This document shows, piece by piece, positions 5,877 to 12,816 of a stretch of 20,000 nt of DNA. Both the position numbers and the translations under genes were made by a program. Each line of letters starts with the position of its first letter. Within the stretch, counting starts at the first letter, position 1. Below the pieces are notes generated by a model. The model was given only the letters and a program-made list of their open reading frames with translations, was not told the origin of the DNA and did not search any database. Source of the DNA: Atractiella rhizophila (Eukaryota); NCBI GenBank assembly GCA_021432655.1, contig MU271438.1:46027-66026 (forward strand), read 5' to 3'.

Positions 5877-7955
5877 TTAGTGATTGCGAGGCCGACAACG
5901 CCCAACCTTCCTCCCCCACATGATCCTCTTCACCACTTCATCTATACTCGCCTCTTCAACAGGAAGAATATCCTTCAGACATTGTTCGACTTTTCCGTGC
6001 CACTCCTCACCAGTCGGTGCGGGGTCGCAATACCTAAGAAACCTCGCAAGTAACTCCCTCCCTTTCGAACCCTCCAGCAAGCTTTTTGCCCGAGGACGCA
6101 GCTTCTGTATCTCGACGTATCCGTGCTCTCTGCCTAAGGTCACGAATGCTTCGAACACAATTCCCATCTCGCTGTTGGGATCAATGGAGCCGAAATTGTC
6201 GAGGAGGGCGGGGACCATTCCTTCGGTCCACCGTTCAGTGAGGTTTGCTAGGATCCGATGGACAGAAAAATCGTCTGTGAACCTCAGATCGACAGGTGCA
6301 CCCCAGCGAAAGCGATTTCTAACGTGCTGAGCGACGAGCCACGCAGCCACCCAATCCTCTTCGTGAATAAAGAACTTGATGGCTAGTTCAGCTATTCCTG
6401 CATTCCAAACATCCTTCGATTGGTTCTTCATCCTTGCTTGCCAGGACCGAAACGAATGACTGGAACATCGCACGCGTAACATTTCTCGCAAAATAGCTCG
6501 AGGTTTTGGGACACGAATCTGGAAAGGGGGAGGGAGAGAAAGGACGTTCAAAATTTCAGGCGCTTCAACCTCTGGTGACCGAGGGATGAAATCAGGTGCT
6601 GAAGGACCGATTCCATAGTCTTCGATCATGTTCCGGACTCTGAATCGGGAGGTAAGGACATGCTTGAACGTCTGACCGTTGGGGACGAGCTTGTCCTTCA
6701 GCATCAACTGAAAGATGGCGAAAGTAGGGGCGTGTCGTTGCAAGAGTGCAGTTGCCGCGATGTAAGACTTAGGCTCCCTCTCCGGATGAGCAATTTTCCA
6801 AGGTGGGCGATAGATCCATGTTAACTCCTGCTCCGCGGATAAGATGCTGTTGATGAGGACCGTCGAAGACAATGGATCGAAACCATCATCTAGCATGTAG
6901 CGAATGATATCGGCTGGTCGAACTTTCCGAACCATGTTTAATTTGAGCGGCCTTTGTCGAGGAAAGCGAGAAAGAGCGTAGAGCATCTCAACGTAAGGGC
7001 GAGCGTACTCATTGTTCGGTTTCGCCCCGCTCGCACCATCCCGTAAATGCCGAGGATGAACTACAAAGCGTAAACGGTAGATTACGAACCAGTGATAGGC
7101 GAGGTTGAGATCCGGATCCTCACCCTTGACGGAGTTTTTGATCAGGATCGAAAAAAATCGAGGAAGGTATAAATGGTCGGTATTTGTGAGTTGGGTATTA
7201 CTCGGATCGTAACCAATGCGGTCAAGAACTTGGGAAATGCTCTTTCTTCCCCGAGCAGAGGACAAAGTCTGTTTAAGACGTAAAGGAAAGCTGAGCCCTC
7301 TGGTACTCCCCCAATCTCTGAACAGCTTTTCAGCTACCTCCTCCTTCCCCGCCGATGACAGGCTAGTCATGAGAACGTAGAGAATGGCCGCGTTGTATCT
7401 GTCCGCCGCGATAGCATTGAGCGAGTTGGCAACAAACTTATTGAGGTTATCTTCACTTCGTGACACCTCGGATTGAGACTGAAGCACGATTCGATCTGAC
7501 AGCCGTACTGAAACACCGATACCCTGATTGGATAAAGCGACTACGGCCTTGAATGCTTCGTTGCGATGGCGATCGTCTGGTGCAACAAGAAACTTCCAAA
7601 TCAGTCGCTCGTAAAGCGTATGGCTAAGCATCTTAGGGCGCGGGATCCAGAACGTAGGGAATCGAACAAGGGAGCGGAAGATCTTGATCGTCAGGCTCTC
7701 TTCGCCTTGGAGCGGTTCGCGAAGGACATTATTGAAAAAGGCATGGATGTATTGGGTGGGTATGGAGAGCTTCACTGACGTTTTCGCGTGGGGAATAAGG
7801 TATGGATTCCCATGGTCGAGCGCATGCAGAAAGGGGGACGAGATGGTTTTGACAGGCTGAAAACCGAGCTGGACTCGAGGTGAAACACAGAGAGGCGTGC
7901 GGCGGGAGATAGGCGTGATGGGAGGGGCTCCCCGAAGGAGACGATGTCGAGGCAT
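5877..7955 (-). CDS. Intronless 692-aa helical protein, probably a mitochondrial PPR-like RNA-binding protein
   Basis: Long uninterrupted ORF. Arg-rich, acid-free N-terminus (MPRHRLLRGAPPITPISRR) resembling a mitochondrial presequence. Degenerate PPR-like segments AIFQLMLKDKLVPNGQTFKHVL and IIRYMLDDGFDPLSSTVLINSILSA. The CDS is fairly secure; the function is inference. Confidence 0.65.
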   Translation of the reverse strand: MPRHRLLRGAPPITPISRRTPLCVSPRVQLGFQPVKTISSPFLHALDHGNPYLIPHAKTSVKLSIPTQYIHAFFNNVLREPLQGEESLTIKIFRSLVRFPTFWIPRPKMLSHTLYERLIWKFLVAPDDRHRNEAFKAVVALSNQGIGVSVRLSDRIVLQSQSEVSRSEDNLNKFVANSLNAIAADRYNAAILYVLMTSLSSAGKEEVAEKLFRDWGSTRGLSFPLRLKQTLSSARGRKSISQVLDRIGYDPSNTQLTNTDHLYLPRFFSILIKNSVKGEDPDLNLAYHWFVIYRLRFVVHPRHLRDGASGAKPNNEYARPYVEMLYALSRFPRQRPLKLNMVRKVRPADIIRYMLDDGFDPLSSTVLINSILSAEQELTWIYRPPWKIAHPEREPKSYIAATALLQRHAPTFAIFQLMLKDKLVPNGQTFKHVLTSRFRVRNMIEDYGIGPSAPDFIPRSPEVEAPEILNVLSLPPPFQIRVPKPRAILREMLRVRCSSHSFRSWQARMKNQSKDVWNAGIAELAIKFFIHEEDWVAAWLVAQHVRNRFRWGAPVDLRFTDDFSVHRILANLTERWTEGMVPALLDNFGSIDPNSEMGIVFEAFVTLGREHGYVEIQKLRPRAKSLLEGSKGRELLARFLRYCDPAPTGEEWHGKVEQCLKDILPVEEASIDEVVKRIMWGRKVGRCRPRNH

Positions 7956-8662
7956 ACATGAGTGGATGCGCCTTTATACAATGCTAAAGACGATGTGTAG
8001 ACAGCGAAGGGAACATAGCCTGCCAAAATAGTGAGCACAGGGTACATTCAGTACATCAAGTCAGCATGGGAGAACCAATACGTGTCATAGATGGGAAGTT
8101 TTCAGCTCATCCATCAACAAAGAGAGTCTGCTAAGCAGAGCTGAATCCAAACATATGTATGGAGGAAGACTCTGAACGAAATGAAACAGCAAGTAGGCGT
8201 GGAAAGAGAAACATCTTTGTAAATTGCAGAAAGCAGCGCCAGCCTGCAAAGGTAGAATCGATGAAGGATGAAAGACAACCTAGACCGGAAGCTAAAACAG
8301 AGGGAGAGCTCTCAAAGAATATTGACTTTCTGAAGCAGAAACCACCTCGACCTTGATGAAGCAGAGTGCGCACCTTGACGAAAATTGATTTATTCTTCCT
8401 CTCACACCTCCAAAGACAACCTAATATCTCGTCTTAAAGCTCCTTCTGTTGGTTTTTCTCCTTCTATCCCTCTTTATGGCCAATCTGGCCGTCCTCACAA
8501 AATTTTGGCACTTTTCGAGGGGCTTCGACTGGATACCTTTGGGGCCTGCACAGGTTTGAGTCATTTCTTCCAACTCAACTTCTACGCGACAAAGGCGTTG
8601 AGCATTAGCGGTTCCATTTCTTGCCTCTTCCTAGACAACATACTTGCATATTCGTCCTCCTG

Positions 8663-8683
8663 ATGCCACCATGTCCACTATGA
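8663..8683 (+). promoter_or_regulatory. Out-of-frame upstream ORF (MPPCPL*) overlapping the REV1 start codon
   Basis: ATG at 8663 lies 8 nt before the REV1 ATG (8671). Its TGA (8681-8683) overlaps the second in-frame REV1 ATG (8680-8682) as ATGA. Confidence 0.45.
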
Positions 8684-11600
8684 GGGCAGATTACAGAAAT
8701 CCTGTTACGCCGACTCGAAAGCGCAAAGCGGCTGAAGCATTCAATCCCTCGACTTCGTCAGACGCGGACGAGTATACCTCCCTTCCGCAATATGGAGCGA
8801 TCAAGTTTGGGGAGTTTGGAAAGTACATGGATAACAAGAAAGCGAAGCTACGCGTGCAGCTTTCAGATCTGCAAGCAGAGGTGGATCAAGGGCTGGAAGG
8901 TGAGGTCGAAGATGAGTTTCTGGAGTTGTTGAAGGGAACGAGTCAGAGTGAGATTCTGCGAGGGTGCAAGATCTGGATTGATGGAGCTGTATTTTCTCCT
9001 CCCCAGATTGTCTTGAGGAAGATAATCGCGCTCCACGGAGGCGAATACGTCGCATATCTCGATGCAAAAAGGAGTGTTACGCATATCATCGCTACGACTC
9101 TCACTCCAAGTAAAGTCAAGGAATATGCAACCTTCAAGGTGGTGACCAGTGATTGGATTATTGACTCCGTCAGGGAAGGGAAGAGATTGGACTGAAGGAA
9201 TTTCAGGCTGAAGAATGGAGGGAGAGGAGTGGACAGGGTATTGGGGTCTGCTATCGGACTGGATACAGAAGGTTGGGGACGAGAAACGAGTCAACAAACG
9301 CTTTCATTCGCTTCAACTTCCGCACCACCCAAAGGAATTCCACCTATGAGCAAGCTACGAATCCACCTTTCTCCCGATCCAGACTTCCCTGCTCCAAATT
9401 CCAGCTCTGACCATATCACCCCTATTCCTTTGCAAAAAGGAACGAATGATGAAGCAAGCACGAGCAACTCCTCACCCTCTGACCAGTTCCCACGCCAGTC
9501 CAAGCTCCCTCCGAATCGACCACCACCTCGCTTCGCACTCGATGTGGCAGGAGATAGTGATCCTGGTGTCAGTGCGAGAACACTCGGTGCCATCGAGGAG
9601 GAGACTGAAGAAGAAGCGTCGGATATCCCTCCGGCGGCACAGCCAGTTCGAGCTCTCCAAGAAATCGAGCAGTCCAGCGATACGTCCTTTGTTCTTCCGC
9701 CGCATGTCCTAGACCAGGTTCCTTTAACCTCTTCCCCACTGCCTTCTCCCCCCAAGCCTCCTCCTGCACCTCCTATCTCACCTATCAAATCCATTTCTCC
9801 TCGAAAGCGTGGACAAGTTGGACCTGAGGGGAATAACGACGGATGGGAGCCGCCGCAAAGAGTTGGGAAAGGGAGAGAAGGGGTATTGTTGGAGAGCGAA
9901 GAGTGGCGTAAAACTCACACGTCCGCCAACGCCGGTGGATATGTGGAGCAGTTCTTAAACCAAAGTAGACTCCACTTGATCAGCACTTTAAAACTGGAAC
10001 TCCAAGATTATGTCGCAAAGAAGTTGAAGGAGAAAGAAAGGGACGGTGTGAAGACGAAAGAGAAGGAAAAGGAGAAGAAGAAGTGGAGGGGGACGGAAGG
10101 AGAGGGGAGATGGTTTGCCCATGTGGACTTGGATTGCTTCTTCGTCAGTGCTGTATGTCTCTCTTTCCTCTCTTGATCCACAATCCTTAAACTATGTATA
10201 GGGTTTAACTAAGCGTCCTGAATTGAAAGGAAAGCCCGTCGCAGTTTGTCATGTCAAGGGTCAAGGAAAAGGTGGGAAAGACGATCCGAGCACGAGTGAA
10301 ATTGCAAGCTGTAGCTATGAAGCAAGAAAGTTCGGGGTGCGCAACGGGATGTTGTGCGTCATTCCCTAATTTCTGAGTCTCGATCTCCTAACCACAGTAC
10401 TTGTAGCCTTGGTCGTGCGCGGGAGCTCTGTCCTGATATCCAAACAATCCCTTACGATTTCGAGTTGTACAAGCGAATTTCTTACACATTCTATGATCTC
10501 CTCCTTGAAAGGAGCGTACCGATCCAAGCTCAATCCCTCGATGAAGCATACATAGACATTTCTACACTTATCGACATGGATCCTCGTACACTCTCCCAAA
10601 CTTCCGCCATCGAGGCACGTCTGCAGGACTTTGGCAACTCTCTACGCCAGAACATATTTGAGGCGACTGGGTGCACCGCTTCTCTTGGATTAGGAGAGAA
10701 CATGCTCCTCAGTCGTCTAGCGACAAAGAAAGCAAAACCGGATGGAGTGTATTGGCTGCGCGTCGGTGCTGGAAGGGAGGTCTCAGCGTTGGGAGAGAAA
10801 GAAATTGAGGGAAAGGAGTGGCTGGATGGTCTGGACGTCAGAGACCTCCCTGGAGTTGGGCGGGAAAGTGAGAAGAAGTTGGAGGCCATCGGGGTGGAGA
10901 AAGTTCGCGATTTGAAGGCTGTGGACAGGCAGAAGCTGGTCGGAAACCTAGGTCAGGCTTTGGCCAGTAAACTGTTGGATTACGCGAAAGGAGTCGATAA
11001 CAAGGAACTGGAAGATCCTGGGAAGATGAGAAAGAGCGTCAGCACCGAAATCAACTATGGTATTCGATTCAAGACGGAACAGGAAACAAAGGTGTGCTAA
11101 TTCGCTCTCGTGCATTTCAAACTCCCTTAAATTAAGCTCGTAGACCTTTGTTGAGAATGTTGCTGCCGACACTGCAAAACGCCTTCAAGACGCGTCACTC
11201 AAAGGACGACATCTCACCATCAAAGTAATGGTGCGCGCCCCAGATGCTCCTATAGAGCCAACGAAGTTCATGGGACATGGTGTCTGCGATGCGTTCTCAA
11301 AGTCAATGCCCATATCGGATGGCAAAGGAGGGCCAACAGACGAAGCCACCGTCCTCGGAGAAGGTGCATGGAAGATGTTGAAGGCGTCGTCAGTACCATG
11401 GGAAGATCTCAGAGGTTTTAGCATCATGGTCACAAAATTGGAAGGCACAACTGAAGGAAATTCAAGTCAGAAAAAGCTAGATTTTGGCAGCATGGTCACC
11501 AAGCCCGGTGCAGAGAAGAAGGGAAAGGAGAAGGAGAAAGGATTGCGACGGGTTTCAGAGCTGATACCAGCGGACGAAGATTGGAGAAACCTAGACACTG

Positions 11601-12643
11601 CGGCATCATCATCAAAGGCGACCCTTGTTGGCCCACCACCTGGATGCCAACCCACTCAGCTTGATTTTCCGGATAGGGAGATGATTGAAGATGACGATTT
11701 TCTCGCCCTACCTTCGGAGTATCAGCGAGCCATAATGTCTAAAGGTGTCACACTTCCACGTTCCAAGAGTCCTTCTTTCATCGACCTACCTGGTTATGGA
11801 AAAATTGCTCAAGACGATTTTGATGCTTTGCCCAAGGACATCCAGAGGGAGTTGAAAAGAACCTACAGAGAGAGGACTCCTGCAGCTATTCCATCGAAAC
11901 GAGGACGGTCCGCTACTAATTCGGATGCGGAAGATGATGGGAAAGTGGCCAAGAAGAAGCAGAAGGTCGTGAAGCTTGAGCCAGGTCAACTCAAGCTCAT
12001 CGATCAGAGGGTGAAGAAAAACGACAAGCACAAGTATACAAAAGGGATTACGAGGGAAGTTGTCCTGGGAGGGACTACGTCAAAGGTCTCCCCTGCGCCG
12101 TCCCCCTCGGCCATTACCGACGAAGAGTTACGCGTGCTTGGTCTCGACGCAGATTACTTTCGATGCATACCGCGAGCCGACCAGATCGATACACTCCGCT
12201 ATCAAAAAGCAAGTCTCAGACGGGAATGGAAGGTTTTCAAGGAACAGAAGGAGCAACGTAACAAGGCTGCGGCGAAGGAGAGACGCAAGTTTTTGGATTT
12301 TGAGAAACCTGACGGTCCGAAACTGCAAGGGAAGGAAACGATTGAAGAGCTTCGAGACTTGCTGGAGAGCTGGTTTGATAATGCTAGAGAGAAACCTGCT
12401 AGAGATGATGTCAGGGATGTGAGAGAGTTTCTTCTAGCATCCTTAAACCCACAGACAGGAAGAGGAAGAGATTGGGAGAAAGTCGCGCAAGTGTTGAAGT
12501 GGTGGAAGCTCCTTTTAGGCGATGCGAGCAAGGATGAAACAAATGAGGAAAATATCCGCGCTTGGGAGAAGGCGTATGATAGGACCAAGAGGCACGTTGA
12601 ATTGGTTAGCAAGGAGGTGTTTGATTGTGTATTGAAGATTTGA
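8671..12643 (+). CDS. REV1: Y-family translesion DNA polymerase / deoxycytidyl transferase REV1 (~1272 aa); exons 8671-10152, 10202-10353, 10407-11091, 11144-12643; in-frame TGA at codon 175 (9193-9195)
   Basis: FGEFGKYMDNKKAKL pre-BRCT helix; BRCT (LRKIIALHGGEYVAYLD..VTHIIA..LTPSK..KVVTSDWIIDSV); N-digit SRLH; palm HVDLDCFFVSA, EIASCSYEARKFGVRNGM and SLDEAYID; ASLGLGENMLLSRLATKKAKPDG; RKSVSTEINYGIRF; KFMGHGVCD; UBM-like repeats (FLALPSEYQRAI, FDALPKDIQREL); C-terminal Rev1 domain (ELRDLLESWF). GCCACC-ATG start. Confidence 0.95.
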
Positions 12644-12816
12644 GAATTGTCTGAGTCTTGAGCCTCCTTTTCTGCCTGAGTGTCGTGTTTGTTTTGTTGT
12701 TTACTTTTGATATCCATGTTCTTGTTCTTGTGCCTTTTACATGCATGTGCTCTTGCTCGCGCAGTCGTTAGGTGTGCAAACTGCTTAAATTATTATAGGA
12801 CGGATAACATATACTT

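Follow-up and report, generated by a model that had tools for sequence, protein, structure and literature searches.

The in-frame TGA in REV1 of Atractiella rhizophila: a probable matter of alleles or consensus in an assembly of several haplotypes

REV1, a deoxycytidyl transferase of the Y family, acts in translesion synthesis and carries a BRCT domain at its N-terminus. In fungal REV1 proteins the BRCT domain is followed by the IMS catalytic core, the thumb and little finger, and then by REV1_C. Reference stops at conserved Trp codons that read G in the RNA are known from the restorative A-to-I editing of filamentous ascomycetes (Fusarium, Neurospora). As far as the cited account goes, fungal mRNA editing belongs to filamentous ascomycetes and shows a strong preference for U at position -1 and for hairpin loops, and its restorative form concerns UAG and UAA (PMC11156358). 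Haploid-consensus artefacts of heterozygous or heterokaryotic fungi come with haplotypes seen as paired contigs, a reference that switches between both, biased letters and gene models bent round a stop. The ALLPATHS-LG assembler writes ambiguities as lists of alternatives, which are flattened later to plain FASTA, according to the part of the literature cited here (PMC6434015).

The REV1 gene of Atractiella rhizophila lies in the window analysed here, a stretch of 20,000 nucleotides, and carries an in-frame TGA in its first exon. With ascomycete restorative editing it shares a reference stop at a conserved Trp codon and a G in RNA; it differs in that the DNA contigs of the gene also read G, in having a UGA stop preceded by G at -1 and not UAG or UAA with U at -1 in a hairpin loop, in having no stable local hairpin, and in lineage. 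With haploid-consensus artefacts it shares paired-contig haplotypes, a window sequence that switches between both, biased letters and a gene model bent round the stop; the differences are that the assembler and its rule are undocumented for this genome and that the alphabetical letter rule described below has a few exceptions. The features to which the text refers are as follows.

8671..12643, + strand: REV1 gene; exons 8671-10152, 10202-10353, 10407-11091 and 11144-12643; 1272 codons plus the terminal TGA
8953..9204, + strand: BRCT domain of REV1, residues 95-178; Pfam PF16589 BRCT_2, E 5.5e-09, profile positions 2-85 of 86
9142..9213, + strand: 72-nt GT..AG "intron" of the deposited protein model, which removes VTSDWIIDSVREGKRLD*RNFRLK (asterisk, stop); unsupported
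9169..9213, + strand: 45-nt candidate intron of the sequence-only reading; GT..AG letters exist; unsupported
9193..9195, + strand: in-frame TGA, REV1 codon 175; the window has A at 9195, where every contig covering the base has G
10153..10201, + strand: REV1 intron 1, 49 nt, GTATGT..TAG; placed according to the deposited model and the frame, no RNA joint listed
10354..10406, + strand: REV1 intron 2, 53 nt, GT..AG; joint 10353/10407 in run X3, depth 54.1
11092..11143, + strand: REV1 intron 3, 52 nt, GT..AG; joint 11089/11142 in run X3 ("cut +2"), frame checked against the deposited protein

The exon limits were read off the sequence and its frames and checked against the deposited protein and two RNA joints. 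The resulting coding sequence of 3819 nt contains stops at codon 175 and at the terminus only, as counted in frame over the four exons. Its domain order matches that of fungal REV1. Besides BRCT_2, a second BRCT profile matched the N-terminus (PF00533, E 6.1e-06), and the Y-family polymerase core is represented by IMS (PF00817, E 2e-19), IMS_HHH_1 (PF21999, E 4.8e-11) and IMS_C (PF11799, E 3.1e-07). REV1_C (PF16727, E 6.5e-14) lies at the C-terminal end and exceeds its cut-off. Judged from its domains and frame, the gene is a complete REV1, a predicted deoxycytidyl transferase. The sequence-only reading had described a single TGA in an otherwise intact REV1, with the polymerase and C-terminal domains undamaged downstream; both points were confirmed, codon 175 being the only internal stop in 1272 codons and the four Pfam families IMS, IMS_HHH_1, IMS_C and REV1_C all following it. 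Divergent from REV1 lies a 698-codon open frame (5877-7973, - strand) for which Pfam gave no family at E <= 0.001, and no family was matched by any of the three open reading frames neighbouring REV1.

The letters at 9190-9198 are GAC TGA AGG, in frame with the ATG at 8671, and because the BRCT_2 match covers residues 95-178, codon 175 falls inside the domain. The conservation of this position was assessed with phmmer, using exon 1 with the stop read through (table 4) as the query against 1.84 billion representative sequences. The search returned 841 proteins at E <= 0.001, of which the best 150 were taken for comparison; with the window's own model left out, 149 remained for a column count by BLASTP against residues 85-200 with X at the stop. 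Each of these homologues matched the BRCT stretch, and the alignments of 148 reached across the stop column, where, among these best of the 841 matches, W was found in 140, T in three, Y in two, and E, C and H in one each. The residues flanking codon 175 align gap-free across the homologues and follow the pattern V-V-x-x-x-W-I-x-D/E-S ... G-K/R-x-x-D/P-W-x-x-F/Y-R. The earlier claim that the TGA stands at the conserved Trp ending the BRCT domain is thus borne out by the alignment of homologues (W in 140 of 148 homologues from the best 150 of 841), and the BRCT tail motif of the window gene ends in Trp as that of fungal REV1 does.

Further copies or alleles of the gene were sought in protein and metagenome collections. 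Protein word searches gave one match, the deposited model itself, among 423 candidates for longer proteins, none among 1148 candidates of similar length and none among 50 for shorter proteins; no fragment from another assembly that ended in ...KRLD or read ...KRLDW... was found in these searches. In metagenome contigs, no match was found for an exact pattern of 29 nt that had R at 9195, and a protein-guided scan of such contigs produced 591 pattern matches, none of which was confirmed.

The word search with the window translation identified a deposited hypothetical protein of Atractiella rhizophila (NCBI; here P0002) of 1248 aa. The window translation is 100% identical to it outside a gap of 24 residues, in which the stretch VTSDWIIDSVREGKRLD*RNFRLK is missing from P0002. 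The position of this gap around the stop indicates that the annotated assembly already carried the TGA and that the gene caller skirted it. Compared with fungal REV1, the deposited model therefore lacks 24 BRCT residues, and the segment 9142-9213 that was removed encodes residues that are conserved in the homologues and aligned without gaps.

Five public sequencing runs contain part of the window, and four of them (X1-X4) were compared over 8400-12800. The data are Logan contigs, not raw reads, and such contigs drop minor variants. X1 and X2 come from one sample, whose kind is guessed as "DNA?", and the kind of X3 is given as "?"; the assignment to DNA or RNA was made here from intron cover and joints. 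The contigs of X1 and X2 run unspliced over intron 1 (records 2 and 10; 10141-10323) and over intron 3 (records 3, 12 and 13), they have an even depth of about 200-330, and the list of joints has no entry for them. Record 1 of these DNA-like contigs continues for 858 nt on the upstream side of 8400, into intergenic sequence. X1 and X2 behave like genomic DNA. One contig of X3, by comparison, skips 10354-10406 and 11090/2-11141/3, with GT..AG ends at both, and X3 behaves like RNA; it bears an organism code different from that of X1 and X2 and has no cover at 8547-8693. The fourth run, X4, is a soil metatranscriptome (2024) with a word share of 0.07 that covers only 9470-9727, 10050-10093 and 11967-12117, the stop site lying outside. 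Its low-depth contigs carry three other letters in 258 bases (9470-9727) and one in 151 bases (11967-12117), and this near-identity to the window points to a close relative of Atractiella rhizophila in that soil sample.

The contigs of X1, X2 and X3 all have G at 9195 and hence a TGG codon, in runs that are not recorded as coming from the assembled isolate. In each run a single contig takes all the depth at this base (233.9 in X1, 327.2 in X2 and 59.7 in X3). The allele of codon 175 kept in DNA-like and RNA-like contigs alike is TGG. With TGG at this codon, the window gene shows no substantial difference from fungal REV1. Genomic evidence for TGG, which the sequence-only reading had named beforehand as refuting recoding, is what the contigs of both DNA-like runs contain. 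The same reading had proposed to look in RNA-seq for A>G at 9195 or for a junction at 9169-9213; the G of the RNA-like run matches the G of the DNA-like ones, and no such junction is listed. The sole RNA-like contig that spans 9195 reads UGG, while a minor UGA transcript would escape the contigs. Since TGG stands in DNA-like and RNA-like contigs, neither editing nor readthrough is needed to account for the gene, and the same applies to a split into a BRCT-only peptide and a separate polymerase starting at the ATG at 9346. Of the earlier proposals, a nonsense allele or an assembly matter survives, in the form that the assembly holds one of two alleles and every contig the intact other.

The RNA-like data bear equally on the two introns that were proposed across the stop. 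Record 17 of X3 is unbroken over 8737-10137, including 9142-9213, and has neither gap nor joint there; its depth over the stop site (59.7) is near that of the spliced contig in the same run (54.1). Joints at 9142-9213 or 9169-9213 are listed in none of the four runs, while X3 shows two other introns spliced. The assembled transcript thus retains both of the proposed introns, and the correct REV1 model should comprise 1272 aa, as opposed to the 1248 aa deposited. For the 45-nt intron of the sequence-only reading, the GT..AG letters are present as it stated, but splicing is contradicted by an RNA-like contig that is continuous at 9142-9213 in a run with joints at two real introns.

The window differs from the runs at many more positions than 9195, namely at 73 (X1), 70 (X2) and 54 (X3) places in 4.4 kb. 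Individual places are listed for 40 of the 82 differing places, and 37 of these 40 lie within the coding sequence, where 19 are synonymous and 18 non-synonymous. This synonymous share is far above the expectation for random errors, so the differences look like real alleles under selection. They lean strongly to one side: of the two letters at a place, the window has the one that comes first in the alphabet in 58 cases against 15 in X1, 55 against 15 in X2 and 47 against 7 in X3, and this direction is true of all six letter pairs in X1 and X2. Of the marks of a flattened heterozygous site, the other allele (G) is present at 9195 in X1-X3, and the choice of letter in the window follows a systematic, non-biological rule (binomial p-values 4e-7, 2e-6 and 2e-8 for X1, X2 and X3, respectively). 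Among the 40 of 82 places listed, the differences covered by a sole contig are alphabetical in 22 of 22 cases in X1, 22 of 22 in X2 and 19 of 21 in X3; the exceptions to the rule among the listed places are 9093 T>A and 10776 G>A in X3 and 11110 G>A in X2. In blocks with several variants the later sites also follow the rule (6/6), for which the chance is 1/64 if the first site alone decides, and a lexicographic choice made once per block does not fully account for this.

Divergence of two lineages cannot be directional and a rule for writing the consensus can, so the bias points to a choice made by the assembler; it probably arises from the flattening of allele alternatives during assembly. 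The commonest class of difference is A>G (19-24 places per run), which includes the intergenic site 8510 in the DNA-like runs. A transcription-linked mutation asymmetry was considered for the excess of A>G and C>T and was rejected, because haplotype divergence lacks direction and all four transversion classes are alphabetical too. No description of the assembler was found in the literature consulted on the Atractiella rhizophila genome, whose data are called "unpublished" in an acknowledgement thanking a colleague, in the part of that article available to us (PMC13347111).

Both alleles of a site can also be seen side by side. Among the listed places, X1 and X2 have a contig for either allele at 10 to 11 and X3 at nine, and at 9195 the G contig stands alone. 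At 11338-11489 and 12226-12245 both alleles persist as contigs in X1, X2 and X3, with the window allele at a share of 0.29-0.57 of the depth; window alleles seen in this way as second contigs must exist in the samples beside the others. The paired contigs thus indicate that the samples hold at least two haplotypes and that the window is a mosaic of these. The depths of paired contigs are near 2:1 and not 1:1 (for example 167.9 vs 74; 230.6 vs 132.9; 44.5 vs 16.9), in DNA and RNA alike, which speaks for nuclei in unequal numbers, for three copies of the genome or for a mixed culture. Two divergent versions each were noted for the blocks 11046-11226, 11308-11520, 11989-12158 and 12226-12245 in DNA-like and RNA-like runs, with up to 13-15 differences per 170-181 nt.

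Taken together, REV1 of Atractiella rhizophila is very probably an ordinary, intact gene transcribed with TGG at codon 175 and without an additional intron, the A of the reference being the assembler's pick at an A/G site in material with at least two haplotypes and the TGA at most a minor heterozygous allele that is sheltered. By this account the culture would hold both TGG and TGA at codon 175; the assembler would have written A, and the Logan contigs would have kept the better-covered G. The TGG allele would be the major, transcribed one and the TGA at most a minor nonsense allele sheltered by it, and the A at 9195 would belong with the isolated, directional differences in which the window has the alphabetically first letter. 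Because contigs drop minor variants, heterozygosity at 9195 is argued by analogy with the other sites, which make it probable that the A allele is truly present in the sequenced culture. We regard it as likely, with a lesser degree of confidence than the account as a whole, that this nonsense allele of REV1 is real and goes unrescued, sheltered in a culture whose haplotypes have shares of about 2:1. By our estimate, what chance remains falls in part to a plain error of the consensus and in part to a difference between strains.

A strain difference would mean that the assembled isolate is homozygous for TGA through a fixed recent nonsense mutation and that X1-X3 represent other isolates with TGG. 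A contig with A at 9195 is indeed seen in no run, between the window and the runs 54-73 differing places are counted in 4.4 kb, and the organism code of X3 is unlike that of X1 and X2. Differences between isolates should, however, go equally in both directions, contrary to the 58:15, 55:15 and 47:7 observed; moreover, window alleles occur in the runs as a second contig in several blocks, at a share of 0.29-0.57, and the 1272 codons are free of other lesions. We therefore consider a homozygous stop unlikely. A plain consensus error, with the A allele absent from the culture, would agree with the G read in every contig, and seems to us slightly less probable still: 9195 resembles the other 21 listed sole-contig differences of X1, which are directional and jointly half synonymous and so behave as real alleles, and a random consensus error is improbable at depths of about 230-330.

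The remaining rivals keep the TGA and ask the cell to deal with it. Conditional recoding, by A-to-I editing of UGA to UGG or by ribosomal readthrough, could draw on the G of the RNA-like run where the window has A and on A>G being the commonest class (19-24 places per run), but the DNA-like runs show the same G and share the A>G difference at the intergenic site 8510. The base at -1 is G and not U, the local fold of -12.1 kcal/mol is unexceptional (z 0.65; equalled or bettered by 149 of 200 shuffles), fungal mRNA editing has been described for filamentous ascomycetes, and Atractiella rhizophila is a basidiomycete. Readthrough is further opposed by the UGG of the sole RNA-like contig at the site, and no tRNA gene is present within the 20,000-nt window. 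Recoding is accordingly given almost no weight. The same minimal probability is assigned to a stop that is spliced out (with the 45-nt segment 9169-9213 or the 72-nt segment 9142-9213) or to a split gene with the polymerase starting at the ATG at 9346: GT..AG letters do occur at both candidate introns and the 72-nt one is used in the deposited model, but X3 record 17 is continuous at a depth close to that of the spliced contig, no joint is listed there in any of the four runs, and the residues that would be removed, among them the Trp of DWIIDS in the BRCT domain and the segment G-K/R-x-x-D/P-W, are gap-free in the homologues. The gene's real introns measure 49-53 nt. A combined possibility, a real TGA haplotype with allele-specific rescue of its transcripts through editing or readthrough, masked by contigs of the major allele, appears very improbable, and an unrescued, sheltered TGA allele is much more likely.

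An intact, transcribed REV1 allele is present whether the TGA is a sheltered allele, a consensus error or a strain difference, and no recoding mechanism is called for. The TGA at codon 175 comes down to ordinary alleles or to the consensus of an assembly with several haplotypes, accompanied by a bent gene model, and is not a case of recoding. As the fungus has and transcribes an intact REV1, the finding carries little biological weight; it is of some practical use, since 24 conserved BRCT residues are missing from the deposited model through an intron called to dodge the stop. The reference seems to be pieced together from at least two haplotypes, with its letters picked directionally, and other apparent nonsense codons or odd micro-introns of this assembly therefore need to be checked against reads before they are read biologically. 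The A>G excess of the reference against RNA resembles editing, yet the DNA contigs share it. If true genome-wide, such a directional choice of alleles would mimic A-to-G and C-to-T "editing" wherever RNA of this fungus is compared with its reference.
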